NCBI GenBank assembly: GCA_963813325.1
Contig: CAWEYM010000002.1
Coordinates: 70,391-134,390, forward strand
From: an uncultured Acidobacteriota bacterium
GTDB taxonomy: Bacteria > Acidobacteriota > Vicinamibacteria > Vicinamibacterales > JAKQTR01
Reading direction: 5' to 3'
Length of the DNA stretch: 64,000 nt
Position 1 is the first letter of the stretch; every line of letters starts with the position of its first letter. The notes beneath the pieces were generated by a model. It had not been told where the DNA came from and did not search any database. It saw nothing but the letters and a program-made list of their open reading frames with translations. Made by a program: the position numbers and the translations under genes. Below are positions 576 through 47,062 of the stretch, piece by piece.

Positions 576-1259
576 GTGGCGCAGTTCTTCCGGGTGGCGT
601 GGGTGGTGATGCGCAAGGACCTCACGGTCGAGGTGCGCAGCCGGGAGGTCATCTACACGACCGTGTTCTTCGCCGTGTCGTGCGTGCTCGTGTTCGCGTT
701 CGCCCTCGTGAAGGAGGGGCGCCCGCTCGAGGACGCCGCCGCCGGCATCCTGTGGATCGCGATTTCCTTTGCCGGGACGCTCGGGCTGGGCCGGACCTTC
801 GAGCGCGAACGCCACACGGAGACCCTGCGGGCCCTGATGCTCGCGCCGTCGGAACGTCCCGCGATCTACGTCGGCAAGCTGCTGGGCATCGTCAGCCTCC
901 TGCTCGTGGTGGAGGCCATCCTGGTGCCGCTCGTCGGGCTGCTGTTCTCGGCGCCCGTCTTTGCCGAGCCGCTCTGGCTGGCCGTCTTGCTCGTTGCCGG
1001 CACGATCGGATTCTCGAGCGTCGGGACGCTGTTCGCGGCGATGCTCATCAAGGCGCGGAGCCGGGACGTGCTGCTGCCGGTGCTGCTGTATCCGATTACC
1101 GTCCCGGTGATCATCGCCGGCGTGCGCGGGACGATGGCGCTGCTGCAGGCGACGCCAGACGTCCCGATGGCGCGCTTCTGGGCGGCGCTCCTCGTGTTCT
1201 TCGACGTCGTGTTCGTGACCTTGTCGCTGTGGACGTTCGAGCCGCTCATGACAGAATAG
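576..1259 (+). CDS. ccmB: Heme exporter permease CcmB
   Basis: 227-aa polytopic membrane protein located between ccmA and ccmC. The N-terminus MAQFFRVAWVVMRKDLTVEVRSRE is typical of CcmB. Its stop TAG lies inside the first unit of the heptamer array. Confidence 0.85.
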   Translation: MAQFFRVAWVVMRKDLTVEVRSREVIYTTVFFAVSCVLVFAFALVKEGRPLEDAAAGILWIAISFAGTLGLGRTFERERHTETLRALMLAPSERPAIYVGKLLGIVSLLLVVEAILVPLVGLLFSAPVFAEPLWLAVLLVAGTIGFSSVGTLFAAMLIKARSRDVLLPVLLYPITVPVIIAGVRGTMALLQATPDVPMARFWAALLVFFDVVFVTLSLWTFEPLMTE

Positions 1260-1297
1260 GTTATAGGGAATAGGTTATAGGGGATAGGGGATAGGGA
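1256..1297 (+). repeat. Six in-phase heptamer units: ATAGGTT ATAGGGA ATAGGTT ATAGGGG ATAGGGG ATAGGGA
   Basis: Read directly from the sequence. The array is AT-rich relative to its surroundings. The same units occur in reverse complement at 30724-30793. Confidence 0.95.
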
Positions 1298-1304
1298 TTC
1301 GTGA

Positions 1305-1336
1305 GCCGTTTGCCGTTCGCCGCTGATTCGCCGTTC
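1305..1336 (+). repeat. Short GCCGTTY heptad cluster (GCCGTTT GCCGTTC GCCGCTG..GCCGTTC)
   Basis: Read directly from the sequence. The related words GCCGTTCGCC and GCCGTTCGCCGTTCGCC recur at 2588-2622 in the next intergenic region. Confidence 0.7.
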
Positions 1337-1359
1337 GTCGTGTGTCGAGAGCCGCTGCC

Positions 1360-2016
1360 ATGAACAAAGCCTTCACTCCGTTGACTCTCGTCGCAATGGT
1401 GCTCTTCGTCACCGCTCCCGTGATGGTGGCCGGGGCGCCGACGGAAGCGACGATGGGGATGATCCAGAAGATCTTCTACTACCACGTGCCGGCCGCGATG
1501 GTGATGTTCCTGGCCACCTTCGTGTGCGGCGTGGCGAGCGGCGTCTTCCTCTTCAAGCGGAGCGCCGCCGCGGATCGGCTGGCGGTGTCGGCGGCCGAAC
1601 TGTCGGTCCTGTTCGGGGCCATCGTGCTCGTGACCGGCCCGCTCTGGGCCCGCAAGGCCTGGGGTGTCTGGTGGCAGTGGGATGCCCGCCTGACCTCGGT
1701 CCTCCTGCTCTGGATGATCTTCATCGCCTACCTGCTCGTGCGCCGGTACGGCGGACCGGGATCGGAAAAACTGGCCGCGGCCATGGCCATCTTCGGCATG
1801 GCGAACGTGCCGTTCGTCTACGTGTCGGTGAACTGGTGGCGGACGATTCACCCGAACACCAACGTCGTCCGGACGCTGGCGCCCGGCATGCGGGGCCCGT
1901 TCTGGTTCTGCGTGGTGTCGTTCCTGCTGCTGTTCGGCCTGCTGTTATGGCTGCGCACGCGGCTCGAAAACCAGCGGGCGCGAGTCGAACAACTGTACCT
2001 GGCGATGGATGAATAG
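1360..2016 (+). CDS. ccmC: Heme exporter / heme lyase component CcmC
   Basis: Contains the tryptophan-rich heme-handling motif WGVWWQWDARLTS and is a polytopic membrane protein. ATG at 1360; an alternative GTG lies at 1342. Confidence 0.9.
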   Translation: MNKAFTPLTLVAMVLFVTAPVMVAGAPTEATMGMIQKIFYYHVPAAMVMFLATFVCGVASGVFLFKRSAAADRLAVSAAELSVLFGAIVLVTGPLWARKAWGVWWQWDARLTSVLLLWMIFIAYLLVRRYGGPGSEKLAAAMAIFGMANVPFVYVSVNWWRTIHPNTNVVRTLAPGMRGPFWFCVVSFLLLFGLLLWLRTRLENQRARVEQLYLAMDE

Positions 2017-2549: not shown

Positions 2550-2637
2550 AGCAGGGCCCTTCGCCGTGTGCCGCTGCCCGGCCGGAAGCCGTTCGCCCCT
2601 GCCAGGCCGTTCGCCGTTCGCCAGCCTTGCGCCGTGC

Positions 2638-3387: not shown

Positions 3388-3888
3388 CTATGCTCCCAGC
3401 CATTCCAGGATGTGCTCGACCAGTTCACCGATCGGCCTGCGCGAAGCGTCGACCCGCAAGTGCGAGAGCTGGTACGCCGCGCGCCGCACGTCATAGAGCA
3501 ACGCCAGCTGGGTCCGGTCGGCCGCGAGCGGGCGGCTGCCGTCGAGCGGGATCCTCGGGACGAGCTCCGCCAGCGGCACGTCGAGCCAGATCGCAGCCCC
3601 GTCGGCCTTGATGACCGCCCGGTTGTCGGGATCCGCGAACGTCCCGCCGCCCGTGGCGATCACCGCGTGGCGCTCCGCCACCAGGTCGAGCAGGACGGCG
3701 CGCTCTACGGCGCGGAAGTATGCTTCGCCATGCCGGGCGAAGATCTCCGAGACCCGCTGGCGCTCCCGGGCCTCGATGGTGTCGTCCACGTCGATCATCT
3801 GCCAGCCCAGCCGGGACGCGAGCGCCCGCCCGACCGACGTCTTGCCCGCTGCCATGAACCCGACGAGGTAGATCTTGTCCGTTCTCAC
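3388..3888 (-). CDS. aroK: Shikimate kinase
   Basis: Has Walker A GFMAAGKTSVG, a shikimate kinase-like core (IDVDD, ATGGG), and overlaps the aroA stop by 4 nt. Confidence 0.9.
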   Translation of the reverse strand: MRTDKIYLVGFMAAGKTSVGRALASRLGWQMIDVDDTIEARERQRVSEIFARHGEAYFRAVERAVLLDLVAERHAVIATGGGTFADPDNRAVIKADGAAIWLDVPLAELVPRIPLDGSRPLAADRTQLALLYDVRRAAYQLSHLRVDASRRPIGELVEHILEWLGA

Positions 3889-5201
3889 GACCGCAGGATC
3901 CCGAGCGTGTCGAAGAACCCCGGGTACGACACCGACACGGCATCGGCCCCGAGAATGGTGGATGAGGCGCGCGCCCCGAGGGCGGCGATCGAGAACGCCA
4001 TCGCCAGGCGGTGGTCCCCGGCGGCGTCGGCCGTGCCGCCCGCCAGCGGCTCACCGCTCTGAACCGTGAAACCGTCGTCGTACTCCTCGGCCGTGGCGCC
4101 GAGGGCGCGGAGCCCCGCCACCAGCGCCGCGATGCGGTCGCTTTCCTTGACCCGCAGTTCGCCGGCCCCCGTGACGGTGAGCGCGCCCCCAAAGGTCGCG
4201 AGCGCGGCGAGGGCGGGAATCTCGTCGATGAGCGCGGGGACGTCCGTCGGGTCGATCGTCGCCGGGCGCAGGGTGCCGTACCGCACGCGCATCGTGCCGG
4301 CGGGCTCCGGCTCGCCCGGATTGAGGATGGCCACGTCGACTTGCGCGCCCATGCGGGTGAGGACGTCGAGAAACGCGATCCGGGTCGGGTTGAGGCCCAC
4401 GTCATGAATCTCGACCTCTGACCCCGGCACCGCGGCAGCGGCCACGGCCCAGAATGCCGCGGAGGACGCGTCGCCCGGCACGCGCACCGTGGCGGGACGC
4501 AGCCGCTGGCCGCCGGCCACCCGGACGCGGGCCTGCGCGTCGATGTCGACCTCGGCGCCGAAGATCCGCAGGGCGAGCTCGGTGTGGTTCCTCGTCGGCA
4601 CCAGTTCGTGCACCGAGGTGATTCCCCGCGCGTGGAGCCCGGCCAGCAGCACCGCACTCTTGACCTGGGCGCTCGGCACGGCTGGATCGAACGCGATCGC
4701 CGACAGCGCGCCACCCGACACGGTCAGCGGCAGGCGGCCATCGTTCGATGTGATCCGCGCGCCCATGCGCTCGAGGGGTTCGATGACGCGGCGCATCGGG
4801 CGCCGTGAGAGGGAGGCGTCCCCGGTGAAGGTCGTGTCGAACCGGTGCCCGGCCAGGATCCCGCACAGCAGGCGGACCGTCGTCCCCGAGTTGCGGGCCT
4901 CAAGTGCGGCGGGCGCCGGGCGCAACGCCCCGACGCCGCGACCCTCGACGATCCAGGCGGTGCCGCCCGACACGTCCTCCCCGGCCGGCCGGACGGGGAC
5001 GCCCAGCGCGGCCAGGCACTCGCGCGTGGCCCGGCAGTCCTCACCTGGCGCCAGGTTGAAGAGGCGGGATTCGCCGTCCGCCAGGGCGGCGAGCATCAGG
5101 ACGCGATGCGAGATCGACTTGTCGCCGGGCACGCGGACGCGGCCATGCAGGCCCTCCCCGGGGCCGATCGGAGCAACCAGCGTGGATGCCACGGCTCGCA
5201 C
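3885..5201 (-). CDS. aroA: 3-phosphoshikimate 1-carboxyvinyltransferase (EPSP synthase)
   Basis: Contains PGDKSISHR, LMLAALADGES and a full-length EPSPS-like sequence. The ORF runs to 5300, but a GTG at 5201 or 5192 gives the canonical N-terminal length. Confidence 0.9.
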   Translation of the reverse strand: MRAVASTLVAPIGPGEGLHGRVRVPGDKSISHRVLMLAALADGESRLFNLAPGEDCRATRECLAALGVPVRPAGEDVSGGTAWIVEGRGVGALRPAPAALEARNSGTTVRLLCGILAGHRFDTTFTGDASLSRRPMRRVIEPLERMGARITSNDGRLPLTVSGGALSAIAFDPAVPSAQVKSAVLLAGLHARGITSVHELVPTRNHTELALRIFGAEVDIDAQARVRVAGGQRLRPATVRVPGDASSAAFWAVAAAAVPGSEVEIHDVGLNPTRIAFLDVLTRMGAQVDVAILNPGEPEPAGTMRVRYGTLRPATIDPTDVPALIDEIPALAALATFGGALTVTGAGELRVKESDRIAALVAGLRALGATAEEYDDGFTVQSGEPLAGGTADAAGDHRLAMAFSIAALGARASSTILGADAVSVSYPGFFDTLGILRS

Positions 5202-19059: not shown

Positions 19060-20226
19060 CTACTGGCAGCCCGGGCGCGGCTGGTAGGTCTTCGGGTAGA
19101 CGTAGTCGGTCCCGGCCTCACCCCACGTCAGCCGGAGGGGCACGCTCGTGTTGTCGTAGTCGAACCCGATATCCACGCCAATCCAGACGCCGTTCTTCTT
19201 GTAGTCCAGGAAGTCGATGCTGATCTCGGGGCCGCCGCGCTTCAGGTTCCACGCCAGGTCCATCCCGCCGCAGATGCCGGCCTCGATCATCCGGTCACGG
19301 ACGTAAGCCATGTTGGCCTTCCGCACGTCGAGAGACACGCCACCCCGGAGGCGATCGGGATAGTGACTCTCGGCCCACCTGACCACGTCCGGCCCGTTCG
19401 TCGGCCACCCGCCCGGCGGCGGCGGGTCCGGCGGCGGCGGGTCCGGGGGCGGCGGCGGTTCGGGCGCGGTCGGTGTCAGAAACGTCTGCGTCGGCGACCA
19501 GGCACCGGTCGTGTTGGGATCGTAGGCCCGCACGCGCCAGAAATATCGCTTGTCGTAAGTCAGTTCCTGCGCCAGCCGGAACTTGGTCTCGGTGGCCTGC
19601 TCCGGGACCGTCACGACGGCCACGATCGCGGTGAACGGCTCGTTCTCGGAGATCTGGAAGGTGTAGGCGATCGCGCCGACCGGGCCCGACCGGGAGGCGT
19701 TGCGGGTCTTGAACTCCGGACGCTCACTGTTCGTGCGGACGCCCCCTACCGGGCTGATGGGCTGCGGCACGCCCAGGTCGACGGGCGTGTAGACCGTAAA
19801 GCTGGCCGCGGCGGAGTAGGGCCCGGTATTGGCGCCATCCAGCGCCCGCGCCCGCCAGTAGTAGGTCCGGTCTGGGGCCAGCGCGTCGGGCAGTCGAAGG
19901 CTGGTCCGGCCGTTGCCGCCGGGTTCGACGCCCTCGCGGTTGAACACCTTCTGCCTGAACTCACCGTCCGTGGCAATCTCAAAAACGTAAGACAGGGCGC
20001 GCTCACCGTTGGTCGATGCGTTCTCGATGAGCAGCGTGACCGGCTGCTCCGTCGTCTTGACGGGGACGCCCTGGGGTTCGAGAGGCTTGGGCGCCGTGAT
20101 GTTCACCCCGGCGATCGGGCCCGCAATCGACGGGCTCGTTGGATTCTTGCTCTTTTCCGCCCCGCAACCGGCCAGCATGGCGACCGCCAGACCGCAGGCG
20201 AGGATGCCAGATGCCGTGTGTTTCAT
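19060..20226 (-). CDS. Lipoprotein with two tandem beta-sandwich-like repeats, a poly-Pro linker and a C-terminal globular domain
   Basis: Has the lipobox LAGC at MKHTASGILACGLAVAMLAGCG. The repeats end ..RTYYWRARALDGANTGPYS..FTVYTP and ..KRYFWRVRAYDPNTTGAWS..FLTPT. The linker is PEPPPPPDPPPPDPPPPGG. Confidence 0.75.
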   Translation of the reverse strand: MKHTASGILACGLAVAMLAGCGAEKSKNPTSPSIAGPIAGVNITAPKPLEPQGVPVKTTEQPVTLLIENASTNGERALSYVFEIATDGEFRQKVFNREGVEPGGNGRTSLRLPDALAPDRTYYWRARALDGANTGPYSAAASFTVYTPVDLGVPQPISPVGGVRTNSERPEFKTRNASRSGPVGAIAYTFQISENEPFTAIVAVVTVPEQATETKFRLAQELTYDKRYFWRVRAYDPNTTGAWSPTQTFLTPTAPEPPPPPDPPPPDPPPPGGWPTNGPDVVRWAESHYPDRLRGGVSLDVRKANMAYVRDRMIEAGICGGMDLAWNLKRGGPEISIDFLDYKKNGVWIGVDIGFDYDNTSVPLRLTWGEAGTDYVYPKTYQPRPGCQ

Positions 20227-30256: not shown

Positions 30257-30702
30257 GAGCGGTCGTCCAGCGGGTCACCTCGGCCCGCGTCGTGGTCGAC
30301 GGCGTCACGGTGGGCGACATCGGCCACGGACTGCTGGCGCTCGTCGGTGTCGCCGGCGACGATGGGCCGGCCGACGTGCGGTACATCGCGACGAAACTGA
30401 ACGACCTGCGCGTGTTTCCCGATGAGCAGGGCAAGATGAACCGGTCGCTGGGCGAGGCCGGCGGATCGATCCTCGCGGTCTCGCAGATCACGCTCTATGG
30501 CGATTGCCGTCACGGCCGGCGGCCGTCGTTCACGCGGGCCGCGGGGCCGGAAGCGGGGCGCCTGCTCTTCGACGCCGTCGTCCAGAGTCTGCGTGAGGCC
30601 GGAGTGGTCGTGGCGACGGGAACCTACCAGGCGCACATGGCCGTGGAACTGGTGAACGACGGGCCGGTGACAATCCTGCTGGACAGCCGCAAGGAGTTCT
30701 GA
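30253..30702 (+). CDS. dtd: D-aminoacyl-tRNA deacylase
   Basis: Begins MRAVVQRVTSARVVVDG and contains SQITLYGD and NDGPVT motifs. The start forms an ATGA overlap with ttcA. Confidence 0.9.
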   Translation: MRAVVQRVTSARVVVDGVTVGDIGHGLLALVGVAGDDGPADVRYIATKLNDLRVFPDEQGKMNRSLGEAGGSILAVSQITLYGDCRHGRRPSFTRAAGPEAGRLLFDAVVQSLREAGVVVATGTYQAHMAVELVNDGPVTILLDSRKEF

Positions 30703-30723
30703 CGGGCGCTATGACCTCCCTTT

Positions 30724-30793
30724 AACCTACAACCTATAACCTACAACCTATAACCTATAACCTATAACCTACAACCTACTCCCTATTCCCTAT
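30724..30793 (-). repeat. Ten in-phase heptamer units (plus strand AACCTAY x8 then TCCCTAT x2), the reverse complement of ATAGGTT/GTAGGTT/ATAGGGA
   Basis: Read directly from the sequence. The units are identical to those at 1256-1297 but in opposite orientation. The last 18 nt (30776-30793) encode the glpD C-terminus ..IGNRE plus its stop. Confidence 0.95.
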
Positions 30794-32407
30794 GACGGGC
30801 GCGTAGAACCGTGCGAGGCCCGACACCTCCTCGGCCTGGCGTGCCGCGTCCCAGCCCAGGTCCCGGGCCAGCATGGCGAGGCTCGCCCGCACGGCCGCCT
30901 GGCCCGGGTGCCCGGCGACGCCAAGACCCGTGCGCCGGACCACGACGTCGGTCAACGTCAGTGCCATTTCGGCGCGAACCGCGTGGACGAGTTCAGCCAG
31001 GATCGCGGGAGACGCCGGTGTGATCGGCGCAGCCAACTCAGGACGCTCGCGGCACAGCGCCGCGACCTGGCGCCACCCTGTACCGTGCGTCTCCACGAGG
31101 TGGACGGCCGCCGCGTCGGTGAGAATCTCCCGCGTCGACCCGACAGCCTCGCGCCGCTCGCTCTCCAGCGACGGCATCTCCCCGCCCGGCAGCGGCGTCG
31201 TGCCGGTCCGGCAGGCCGGGGACCTGCCCAGTTTGCCGCAGGCCGCGTCGATCGCCTGTTGAGCCACGCCGCGCGCGGTCGTGTATTTCACGCCCACCAT
31301 CGAGATGGCGCCGTCGACCCCGTCCCGGGCATGATCGACGACGCGGTGATGCCCGCGCAGCCCGAGGGTGCCGTTGCGGTTCCGCTCGGCCGGCACGACG
31401 CCCCGGTGCACCAGCGTCACATCGCGATCCGTGAGGGCCAGGTCCGGGAACGCGCTGTTCACCTCACTCACGAACGCGGACAACTCGGCGGGCGCCACGT
31501 CGGACTCGTGCGGTTCGACGAGACGATCCGAGTGCGAGGTGCCCACGAGCGCGCGGCCCTGCCACGGCATGATCAGCAGTAATCGGCCGTCGGACGTGGG
31601 AGCACCGATGGCGGTCGACCCGGCGGGCCGGCCGGTCACCAGGTTCATCGCCTTCAGCAGCGGGAAGTCGTGCGGCGCGCCCATCGCCTCCATGAAGCGG
31701 CCGGTGAACGCCCCGGCGGCGTTGACCACGACACGGGCCTCGACCTCGAGGGTCTGTCCCGTGACGCGGTCGCGCACCGCGAACCCGGTGACACGTCCGT
31801 TCGACACCCGCGGCGCGAGCGCCTCGACGTAGTTCGCCAGCACGGCGCCGTGGGCGTCCGCGGCCAGAGCGAAGGCCAGCGTGAGCCGATCCGTGTGCGC
31901 CATGTGGTAGTCGTACCACCGGGCCCCGCCCGTGACGTGGGCGGGGCGCTCGCCGCCGAAGACCGCCGCGCACGCCTCGCGCGAGATGAGCCGCCCTGCC
32001 GGCAGTCGCAGGGACGGCCACAGGCCCGCGTTGCGATCGAAGCCGACGCAGGCATCGAGCCACAGGCCGGCCTGCATCGCGAGGCGGCCTCGCATCAGCG
32101 TGCGCGTCGTGTCGATGACGAAGGGCAGCGGGGCGACCAGGTGCGGAGCGATGCGCGCGAGCGCACGCCGCTCGCCGACCGAGAAGCGGGCCTTGACGAG
32201 GTCGCCGCGCTGAAGCGATCGCAGGCCGCCGTGCACCGTCTTGGCGTGGTTGAACGAACTGCCGCTGCCGAAGTCGCCGCGCTCCACCAGCGCGACAGAG
32301 AGCCCCCGTTGCGCGGCGTCGTACGCCGCGGCCAGGCCGTGGATGCCGCCGCCAATGACGAGGACGTCGTGTCGGCGCGCGGTGAGGCGAGCGAGATCGC
32401 GGATCAT
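30776..32407 (-). CDS. glpD: FAD-dependent glycerol-3-phosphate dehydrogenase/oxidase
   Basis: Has the N-terminal dinucleotide fold DVLVIGGGIHGLAAAYDAAQRG, the motif GSGSSFNHAKTVHGGLRSL and a C-terminal GlpD-type domain. Confidence 0.85.
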   Translation of the reverse strand: MIRDLARLTARRHDVLVIGGGIHGLAAAYDAAQRGLSVALVERGDFGSGSSFNHAKTVHGGLRSLQRGDLVKARFSVGERRALARIAPHLVAPLPFVIDTTRTLMRGRLAMQAGLWLDACVGFDRNAGLWPSLRLPAGRLISREACAAVFGGERPAHVTGGARWYDYHMAHTDRLTLAFALAADAHGAVLANYVEALAPRVSNGRVTGFAVRDRVTGQTLEVEARVVVNAAGAFTGRFMEAMGAPHDFPLLKAMNLVTGRPAGSTAIGAPTSDGRLLLIMPWQGRALVGTSHSDRLVEPHESDVAPAELSAFVSEVNSAFPDLALTDRDVTLVHRGVVPAERNRNGTLGLRGHHRVVDHARDGVDGAISMVGVKYTTARGVAQQAIDAACGKLGRSPACRTGTTPLPGGEMPSLESERREAVGSTREILTDAAAVHLVETHGTGWRQVAALCRERPELAAPITPASPAILAELVHAVRAEMALTLTDVVVRRTGLGVAGHPGQAAVRASLAMLARDLGWDAARQAEEVSGLARFYAPVIGNRE

Positions 32408-46571: not shown

Positions 46572-47062
46572 CCGCCGCAGTCGGGCCAGACGACCGCCGC
46601 TGCCGGCCTGACCGGCGCCCACGGGGCGCCGGCACCAGCCGGCAGGGGAGGAAAGTCCGAACTCCGCAGGGCAGTGCGCCGGGTAACGCCCGGTCAGGGT
46701 GACCTGAAGGAAAGTGGCACAGAAAATATACCGCCCGCCTTCGCGCCTTCGGCGCTTCGGCGTGGCAGGCCCTCGTGGGCGTGCCCGCCGTAGCTCGCTG
46801 GCCGGCCGCAAGGCTCCAGCGAGCGGGGCAGGTAAGGGTGAAAAGGTGCGGTAAGAGCGCACCGCGCCCGCGGCAACGTGGGTGGCAGGCAAAACCCCGC
46901 ACGGAGCAAGACCAAATAGGGAGGCGTTCGAGGGTGGCCCGCCCGATGCCTCCGGGTCGGTCGCTGGACCCCGCCAGAGATGGCGGGGCTAGAGGAATGG
47001 TCGTCGCCCGCGGGGGTTGTCCCCGCGGGAACAGAATTCGGCTTACGGCCCGGCTGCGGCGG
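46572..47062 (+). ncRNA. rnpB: RNase P RNA, bacterial type A
   Basis: Conserved blocks are present: GGAGGAAAGTCCGAAC, GGGTAACGCCCGGT, CACAGAAAATATACCGCC, GGTAAGGGTGAAAAGGTGCGGTAAGAGCGCACC, AGCAAGACCAAATAGG and GAACAGAATTCGGCTTAC. P1 pairing is CCGCCGCAGTCGGGCC / GGCCCGGCTGCGGCGG. The ends are approximate. Confidence 0.88.

Follow-up and report, generated by a model that had tools for sequence, protein, structure and literature searches.

Tandem arrays of 7-nt units are, according to the account of Mrazek et al. 2007 in PMC4679880, the most abundant of the long simple sequence repeats (SSRs) of prokaryotes, and polymerase slippage is given there as a possible origin. We analysed two arrays of this kind in a 64,000-nt stretch of contig CAWEYM010000002.1 from an uncultured Acidobacteriota bacterium; this whole stretch is referred to below as the window. 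The first, array 1, lies between a ccmB-like gene and ccmC and had been singled out in an initial annotation made from the sequence alone, and the second, array 2, which that annotation had overlooked, lies 29 kb away at the end of a glpD-like gene. We argue, with a probability of roughly 0.6, that array 1 is a lineage-specific 7-base simple repeat which was generated by slippage, is anchored on a TAG stop codon and is tolerated where it stands.

Dispersed arrays were described by Rehm et al. 2015 in Xanthomonas, with about 185 of the GGGAATC/(GGGANTN)n type in each genome, and in Nostoc, where the unit is GGGGA(C/T)T (PMC4692102). The Xanthomonas arrays are 89-93% intergenic (two genomes) and lie at a mean distance of 28 nt from the 5' open reading frame (ORF) and 160 nt from the downstream ORF; in both genera these G-rich heptamers are mostly found on the coding strand, no more than 50 bp past a stop codon (PMC4692102). 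The Xanthomonas repeats are mostly transcribed and form quadruplexes in vitro, with no established function; neither mobile elements nor surface genes are associated with them, and phase variation was judged unlikely (PMC4692102). In a second system, the TAACTGA arrays of marine Beggiatoaceae, Cyanobacteria and Bacteroidetes, the units close all reading frames, and binding of a post-transcriptional regulator (S1, Csp or CsrA-type) has been proposed as a putative function (MacGregor 2015; PMC4679880).

Two TAG-containing arrays in the window

The features at the two loci that bear on the comparison with these systems are as follows.

1256..1297, plus strand: array 1, six in-phase 7-nt units (ATAGGTT ATAGGGA ATAGGTT ATAGGGG ATAGGGG ATAGGGA)
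576..1259, plus strand: ccmB-like gene, 227 aa, equal in length to that of relatives, with its 3' end adjoining array 1
1257..1259, plus strand: TAG stop codon of the ccmB-like gene, which is the TAG of array 1 unit 1 and is ancestral, the same stop being found at the same position in array-free relatives
1360..2016, plus strand: ccmC gene, 218 aa, with its ATG start at 1360 as in homologues
30717..30793, minus strand: array 2, eleven units of the array 1 unit family

The sequence at 1256-1297 is exactly as the initial annotation had it, with six in-phase heptamers from the ccmB stop codon onward, and Tandem Repeats Finder agrees (at 1254-1297, period 7 with 6.3 copies and period 14 with 3.1 copies). 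Two further statements of that annotation were confirmed: the ccmB-like ORF terminates in the TAG of the first unit, and, as TAG recurs every 7 nt (offsets 1, 8 and 15 of the array), three units suffice to close every frame. The array is also compositionally foreign to its operon, as had been claimed, with a G+C content of 43% against about 70% for the window. Its plus strand is without C, and the C-free run of which it is part (1253-1299) measures 47 nt, the next longest in the window being 21 nt. Between the end of the array and the ccmC start codon are 62 nt, and the order of the genes around it (ccmA, ccmB, then array 1, ccmC, two small ORFs, a convergent metallophosphoesterase gene, aroK and aroA) is as in relatives.

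Array 2 lies between a convergent glpD-like gene on the minus strand and dtd on the plus strand, where it occupies nearly the whole of the 73-nt gap. Its minus-strand units are ATAGGGA ATAGGGA GTAGGTT GTAGGTT ATAGGTT ATAGGTT ATAGGTT GTAGGTT ATAGGTT GTAGGTT AAAGGGA, and Tandem Repeats Finder reports period 7 with 8 copies and period 14 with 4.3 copies at 30719-30779. The minus strand is again without C, and the corresponding G-free run of the plus strand is 80 nt long. The two arrays thus have the same unit types on opposite strands, each in the sense orientation of its upstream gene. The window contains 14 copies of TAGGNNNTAGG, whereas dinucleotide-preserving shuffles gave 0.10 +/- 0.33 and none of 100 reached 14; all 14 matches are confined to these two arrays.

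Both arrays are head-to-tail tandems longer than composition predicts, as are the prokaryotic long SSRs with a 7-nt unit, and both are intergenic save for the 3 nt and 17 nt by which they overlap gene ends. They share with the wider class of long SSRs with 5-11-nt units the head-to-tail arrangement, a length greater than chance and a phylogenetically scattered occurrence; that class, in the account of Mrazek et al. 2007 referred to above, is purely descriptive, and the same account is silent on TAG-containing units and on placement at stop codons.

In the window arrays and in the repeats of Rehm et al. alike, the 7-nt unit contains a G tract, the tandems are heterogeneous and of a few to about 26 units, and the arrays are dispersed on both strands, overwhelmingly intergenic, near the 5' ORF and flanked by housekeeping genes. 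As to placement within 50 bp of the stop of the 5' ORF on the coding strand, both window arrays overlap the stop codon of the same-strand upstream gene. Read from the G tract, the units of array 1 are GGTTATA, GGGAATA and GGGGATA. GGGAATA of both arrays, GGGAGTA of array 2 and the array 1 boundary unit GGGATTC fit GGGANTN, and GGGGATA, found twice in array 1, is one base from the Nostoc-type GGGGATT, whereas GGTTATA (twice in array 1) and eight GGTT(A/G)TA units of array 2 fall outside GGGANTN and GGGGA(C/T)T. The window arrays differ further in that their host is an acidobacterium, probably one of the Vicinamibacterales, that most of their units are GGTT(A/G)TA with two Gs, and that the units carry TAG, which GGGAATC does not. 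The Xanthomonas arrays, moreover, mostly have the same genes on either side in two species, whereas the window arrays are missing from the nearest available relatives. The initial annotation did not recognise the repeat as part of a known family; 7-base SSRs (PMC4679880, in the account of Mrazek et al.) and stop-proximal G-rich heptamers (PMC4692102) had, however, already been described. The window arrays belong to this known kind of dispersed, G-rich and C-poor heptamer, for which the phylum is new, and TAG in the units and mostly two Gs per unit are their local features.

With TAACTGA, the window arrays have in common that they are genome-specific dispersed heptamers with stops in three frames on one strand and with no predicted RNA structure; stops in all frames limit the overlap with a gene end to about 18 nt in arrays of either type. 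However, the unit is a different one, and TAACTGA arrays mostly lie a few nucleotides upstream of start codons, whereas the window arrays abut stop codons: array 1 ends well before the ccmC ATG, at the distance given above, and array 2 has no start codon downstream, its flanking genes being convergent. Two other systems were considered. The short tandemly repeated repetitive (STRR) heptamers of cyanobacteria are dispersed intergenic arrays defined for heterocystous cyanobacteria, and differ from the window arrays in taxon and units. In the HutP system, UAG triplets with 4-nt spacers have a period of 7, like the UAG spacing of the window arrays; the HutP and TRAP systems, however, belong to Bacillus and are situated in 5' leaders rather than after stop codons, and array 1 has no terminator/antiterminator context.

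The two loci in related genomes

The relatives with which array 1 was compared, the closest available, were L121-L126 (CcmC 85% identical) and L127 (CcmC 81% identical), and array 2 was compared with L248 and L249/L250; the named relatives among the database entries for CcmC and the glpD-like protein are Acidobacteriota/Vicinamibacterales metagenome-assembled genomes. In L121-L126 and L127, ccmB ends ...(L)MTE-TAG at the same position as in the window, and no array is found there. The presence of MTE-TAG in array-free relatives indicates that the ccmB TAG is ancestral and that array 1 was added in register to a pre-existing stop. This overturns the proposal of the initial annotation that the array supplies the ccmB stop. 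The annotation had also contrasted the array with a tightly packed operon and had looked to conservation in relatives; we found that the junction in relatives already has spacers of 38 nt and 104 nt, which are repeat-free and have no similarity to the window spacer, and that array 1 is missing at the orthologous ccmB-ccmC site of the nearest relatives.

A comparable reconstruction was possible for array 2, with one further feature.

30776..30778, minus strand: TAG stop codon of the glpD-like gene, which is the third TAG of array 2 and is identical in nucleotide position to the TAG stop of relatives

The glpD-like protein has 543 aa both in the window and in L248 and L249/L250 (68-70% identical). 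Its C-terminus is FYAPV-IGNRE-TAG in the window, and FYAPV-EPTEP or FYAPV-DPTEA, then TAG, in the relatives; the two array 2 units that precede the stop take the place of the last five, non-conserved codons (EPTEP/DPTEA replaced by IGNRE). Because both arrays are missing at the orthologous sites of the nearest relatives, they are recent, lineage-specific gains, and this alignment of gene ends indicates that both are phased on ancestral TAG stops.

We propose that the two arrays arose and grew by slipped-strand mispairing or by templated repair synthesis at or next to a TAG stop. With TAG in the 7-nt period, expansion, contraction or spread of the array could not lengthen the upstream ORF, and this is probably why they persist. 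The worst outcome would be that a handful of non-conserved residues at the C-terminus are rewritten, as the glpD-like gene shows. For the ccm operon, the result would be a novel 100-nt spacer, of which 42 nt are array 1, and a gap between ccmB and ccmC about 60 nt longer than that of the closest relatives; to this spacer the array would contribute unstructured, C-free RNA. No dedicated regulatory role would be expected, and the copy number may drift. Array 1 would then be a recent, probably neutral addition to a housekeeping operon, and should be annotated neither as a regulatory element nor as the source of the ccmB stop. What is new here is the acidobacterial example and, at both of the loci with a reconstructable ancestral state, an array in register with the ancestral TAG.

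Heptamer arrays of other units occur in these relatives, at sites different from those of the window arrays. An intergenic array of CGGCTAT with 5.6 copies (ATAGCCG on the other strand) is found at L121 18816-18854 and L122 10916-10954, and an intergenic array of GCCAGCC with 5.1 copies, which differs from the window arrays in both unit and site, at L249 10838-10873.

The CGGCTAT array has an identical copy number in L121 and L122, which are two samples of a related population, and this bears on the suggestion that array 1 is a phase-variable (contingency) spacer whose copy number switches or tunes the expression of ccmC. Heptanucleotide repeats do tune expression in Haemophilus influenzae (PMC8262952 and PMC2651432), and array 1 lies 62 nt upstream of the ccmC start. 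A contingency repeat, however, would be expected within a reading frame or between promoter elements, whereas array 1 is intergenic and follows a stop codon, so that changes in unit number cannot shift a reading frame; there is no promoter-like site nearby (scan of 1000-2800), and the flanking genes are housekeeping genes and not surface or host-interaction genes. Phase variation was, in addition, judged unlikely for G-rich heptamers by Rehm et al. (PMC4692102). Given these points, we consider a contingency role for array 1 very improbable.

Placement of heptamer arrays at gene ends

Similar arrays were sought in two sequence collections. Scan 1 covered one genome per species and required four in-phase TAGG units, and scan 2 covered metagenomes and TAGGTT-led arrays; each yielded at least 120 loci, which are examples and not frequencies. 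The matches listed for scan 1 come from Cyanobacteria, Acidobacteriota, Planctomycetota, Gemmatimonadota, Bacteroidota, Proteobacteria, candidate phyla radiation (CPR) lineages and one archaeon, with many unit variants, and the contigs among the matches listed for scan 2 range in G+C from 0.32 to 0.70. Many of the cyanobacterial matches listed carry TAGGAGT, TAGGGAA or TAGGGAG arrays. As both scans are defined by TAGG, no preference for TAGG units over other heptamers can be read from them. In the fetched loci, which were preselected for a period-7 array, period 7 accounts for 491 array calls and any other period for at most 44; 241 of the period-7 arrays do not contain the TAGG pattern by which the loci were selected.

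The scans also bear on whether array 1 might be an assembly or sequencing artefact. The exact genes in question are carried by one assembly only, in which entries 100% identical to CcmC and to the glpD-like protein are found on a 2.4-Mb contig, and this would allow for such an error. However, there are two separate arrays with shared unit heterogeneity, the frames end at ancestral stop positions, and the same kind of array is present in hundreds of independent assemblies, complete isolate genomes included. We regard an artefact as extremely unlikely.

The position of arrays relative to genes was assessed in a set of 192 arrays with at least four units and more than 300 nt from a contig end, using a simple gene caller of our own which was checked on the window. 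Where the gene upstream shares its strand with the array (97 arrays), the median gap is 12 nt; 43 of these arrays start no more than 10 nt from the stop codon, and in 20 cases the upstream ORF ends inside the array. The median gap is 118 nt for an opposite-strand gene upstream, 140 nt for a same-strand gene downstream and 120 nt for a convergent gene downstream, with eight of 90 in the last group lying within 10 nt. Arrays are thus adjacent to the 3' end of a gene far more often in the sense orientation (43/97) than in the antisense orientation (8/90; P = 3e-8 by Fisher's exact test, and P = 6e-4 with overlapping cases removed), and the 5' neighbour is nearer than the 3' neighbour in 113 of 158 arrays. 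All of the 20 abutting ORFs that were sampled have Pfam domains, which mostly reach to within a few residues of the C-terminus; this indicates that the ends of the abutting ORFs are real gene ends. Placement relative to gene ends, which the initial annotation had put forward for checking, accordingly shows a strong same-strand, stop-proximal bias across phyla, and the coding-strand placement described in Xanthomonas and Nostoc also holds in these 192 arrays from many phyla. Should a mechanism and not mere tolerance underlie this placement, the arrays would offer a simple, widespread system for finding that mechanism.

A weaker version of the stop-proximal trend was observed for heptamer arrays at the same loci that had not been selected for TAGG, and 114 of 159 such arrays have stop-containing units (81 +/- 6 expected). 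Among the 38 arrays that start after a stop codon, the stops are TAG in 15, TAA in 14 and TGA in nine, which is near background, and nine of the 38 are placed in phase where about five were expected. Stop-codon seeding was rejected as the sole cause of the bias, in view of this near-background stop usage, the nine of 38 in phase, and the bias of the stop-free GGGAATC (PMC4692102).

The placement bias is also what might be expected of functional cis-elements, in which a genome-specific RNA- or single-stranded DNA (ssDNA)-binding protein would recognise UAGG or TAGG at 7-nt spacing after stop codons on the coding strand. Possible effects would be on the stability of mRNA 3' ends, on termination or recycling, or on the expression of the downstream cistron, with HutP/TRAP or S1, Csp and CsrA-type proteins as possible analogues. 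Consistent with this are the single unit family at two loci, in each case in sense orientation to the upstream gene, from its stop codon onward; the C-free, unstructured array RNA, which would be accessible; the strand-specific bias, which is strong across phyla and in PMC4692102; the tendency of separate arrays within single contigs to share a unit family (L058, L145, L156 and L188); and the transcription of most Xanthomonas repeats (PMC4692102). Against it, the arrays are missing from the orthologous sites of the nearest relatives, units and copy number vary both inside an array and from array to array, the genes alongside are housekeeping genes with no relation to one another, neither PMC4692102 nor PMC4679880 establishes a binding protein, and there is no terminator/antiterminator structure on which such a protein might act. 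On balance we think it unlikely that the window arrays are elements of this type.

Folds of arrays 1 and 2 with their flanks are not more stable than those of shuffled sequences (z = +1.66 and -0.12, respectively). In Rfam 15, RNase P is the sole match in the window at gathering score, and the only match at 1150-1450 has E = 9.2. A structured RNA or riboswitch was rejected on these grounds. As the scan of 1000-2800 yielded no terminator-like site at array 1 and no promoter-like site, the array has no consensus sites for a terminator, promoter or insulator either. With no promoter- or terminator-like site, stable fold, Rfam match or conservation at the orthologous site, the protein-binding, insulator or phase-variable roles suggested in the initial annotation are not borne out.

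Two lines of the feature list concern the quadruplexes reported for the Xanthomonas repeats.

1266..1296, plus strand: run of four tracts of three or more Gs, with loops of 11, 3 and 3 nt, a possible G-quadruplex motif and the sole such run in arrays 1 and 2
GGGAATAGGTTATAGGGGATAGGGGATAGGG: the array 1 sequence relevant to quadruplex formation

With G-quadruplexes allowed, ViennaRNA left the minimum-energy fold unchanged and did not choose the array 1 motif. Array 2 contains no run of four such tracts; as most of its units have two Gs, it could not form a three-layer quadruplex, and array 1 could do so only by way of the 11-nt loop. As a general explanation, the G-quadruplex was therefore rejected for array 2 and is weak for array 1.

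Several loci returned by the scans merit separate description. A longer repeat is present three times in L133 (about 4300-4560), at intervals of about 110-130 nt; each copy has an (ATAGGTT)n block, identical in its flanks but with n = 4, 3 and 3, which is a visible change in unit number between paralogous copies. L188 (G+C 0.70; arrays at 3600-3624 and about 4365-4382), L156, L145 and L058, all G+C-rich soil contigs, each have a pair of arrays that share a unit family but not a strand, 0.1-9 kb apart; these pairs (GTAGGTT/ATAGGTT with ATAGGGG, and similar) resemble the window pair and the convergent pairs of Xanthomonas. Long TTTAGGG, TAGGGTG or TAGGGTA arrays fill the metagenome contigs L132, L152, L161, L213, L218 and L234, which resemble telomeric or subtelomeric DNA of eukaryotes and not bacterial intergenic repeats, and which were excluded from the position analysis. 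Nine viral contigs carry TAGGTT-type arrays, all with G+C of 0.32-0.51; viral carriage was set aside as a candidate, these nine contigs being uninformative for the window genome.

Flanking sequence and the origin of the arrays

The sequences around the arrays give a further view of how they may have been formed. The relevant features are listed below.

1298..1359, plus strand: remaining ccmB-ccmC spacer, with one GCCGTTT and two GCCGTTC units as well as inexact local copies of the 3' end of ccmB, without counterpart in relatives
2555..2622, plus strand: second GCCGTTC-type site, period 25 with 2.7 copies (74% matches) and GCCGTTC with 2.4 copies
30700..30709, plus strand: copy 1 of the 10-bp direct repeat TGACGGGCGC, which flanks array 2 and includes the dtd stop codon TGA
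30793..30802, plus strand: copy 2 of TGACGGGCGC; its minus strand, GCGCCCGTCA, is the glpD-like Ala-Pro-Val codons plus the first array base

Between array 1 and ccmC, we observed the imperfect copy pairs TCGTGAGCCG/TCGAGAGCCG and GCCGCTCAT/GCCGCTGAT, and GAGCCGCT twice. In the region 1236-1359, the 3'-terminal sequence of ccmB, TTCGAGCCGCTCATGA, is imperfectly copied at 1299 (TCGTGAGCCG), 1319 (GCCGCTGAT) and 1345 (TCGAGAGCCGCT), none of these copies being individually significant. It looks as if the spacer after array 1 was assembled from local duplications. The initial annotation had instead named a second heptad family; its GCCGTTT and GCCGTTC units are indeed present, at 1305-1336 (GCCGTTT GCCGTTC .. 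GCCGTTC) and again at 2588-2622, but in G+C-rich DNA they are statistically weak. With up to one mismatch, GCCGTTCGCC has 35 matches in the window against 23 +/- 5 expected, and a 14-mer common to both GCCGTTC sites has nine matches with up to two mismatches against 5.9 +/- 2.4 expected. GCCGTTC was rejected as a separate repeat family on account of these weak statistics, and local imperfect duplications fit better. The repeat at 2555-2622 sits between a small ORF ending at 2549 and the convergent metallophosphoesterase gene; since in place of window 2550-2637 L121 has a gap of 0 nt and L127 one of 24 nt, this repeat is another lineage-specific intergenic expansion.

The second locus coincides with a synteny breakpoint at about 30700-30800. 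In L248 (11633-19056), an operon of about 7 kb, hisD...hisG, lies between glpD and ttcA-dtd, whereas tblastn found no his genes in the 64-kb window. On its opposite flank, glpD has the methyltransferase and dapF genes both in the window and in L248; downstream of glpD, L249 has yet another gene content. Of the two copies of TGACGGGCGC that flank array 2, the one on the dtd side is missing from L248, and we estimate the chance of an exact 10-bp flanking repeat at this locus to be about 0.004-0.007.

These observations would fit an origin of the arrays in one step, as filler or insertion by break repair or templated synthesis (end joining with slipped synthesis, or a reverse-transcriptase-like activity), and not by gradual slippage. 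Array 2 lies exactly where the his operon of L248 is missing and is surrounded by an exact direct repeat; the spacer downstream of array 1 is a mosaic of inexact copies of the 3' end of ccmB; the 2555-2622 repeat is likewise inserted relative to L121 and L127; and the unit types at the two loci are identical. However, neither array region has inverted repeats, terminal ones included, although no search aimed at transposase or reverse-transcriptase genes was made, and Rehm et al. found no association with mobile elements (PMC4692102). With respect to a transposon or miniature inverted-repeat transposable element (MITE), array 2 has its exact 10-bp flanking repeat and array 1 only a non-significant 8-mer. 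Among the 192 arrays, there is no general signal of flanking direct repeats once overlaps with array units are set aside; about 0.6 arrays with a flanking repeat of at least 10 nt would be expected in the whole set from the shuffle control, and a single case is therefore not compelling. Target-site duplication as a trait of the family was rejected, the excess of long repeats in the 192 arrays being array units that leak into the flanks. As flanking repeats are not a general trait of these arrays, the direct repeat of array 2 is left as an unexplained local observation, and we think a one-step origin improbable.

The proposal that array 1 arose by slippage at an existing TAG and is neutral has nevertheless to be weighed against several findings. 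ATAGGTT and ATAGGGA are common to two independent loci, which pure local slippage leaves unexplained, and the ancestral bases after TAG differ between them, being ACGC/TCGA at ccmB and AGCG/GCGG at glpD. Slippage adds whole units, yet in glpD 15 nt of coding sequence were replaced with no change in length. The position of array 2, where synteny is broken over about 7 kb and an exact direct repeat of 10 bp flanks the array, points to a repair or insertion event over simple slippage. Finally, the stop-free GGGAATC units of Xanthomonas show the same placement (PMC4692102), so that tolerance due to a built-in stop cannot wholly explain the position bias. In view of the shared units, the 15-nt replacement in glpD and the placement of the stop-free GGGAATC, we do not grade the neutral reading higher than the probability stated at the outset, and reserve a small part of the remainder for a binding function and a still smaller one for repair in one step.

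Alternatively, a sequence-specific process that operates at coding-strand stop codons might deposit or maintain the arrays, either a genome-specific RNA- or ssDNA-binding protein or a templated repair process that writes a preferred heptamer in the register of TAG. Such a process would explain the shared units at unrelated loci and the phasing on ancestral TAG stops, and would also explain coding-strand, stop-proximal placement from Xanthomonas and Nostoc to Acidobacteriota, Planctomycetota and Bacteroidota. We hold it to be rather improbable.

Two other features of the window were recorded. The bacterial RNase P RNA, class A, is present at full length at 46578-47060 on the plus strand (254 bits). 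At 19413-19466 there is a G+C-rich tandem repeat, CCGGCGGCGGCGGGT, of period 15 with 2.9 copies and 96% matches; it overlaps a CGG triplet run and may encode a Gly/Ala/Arg-rich stretch.

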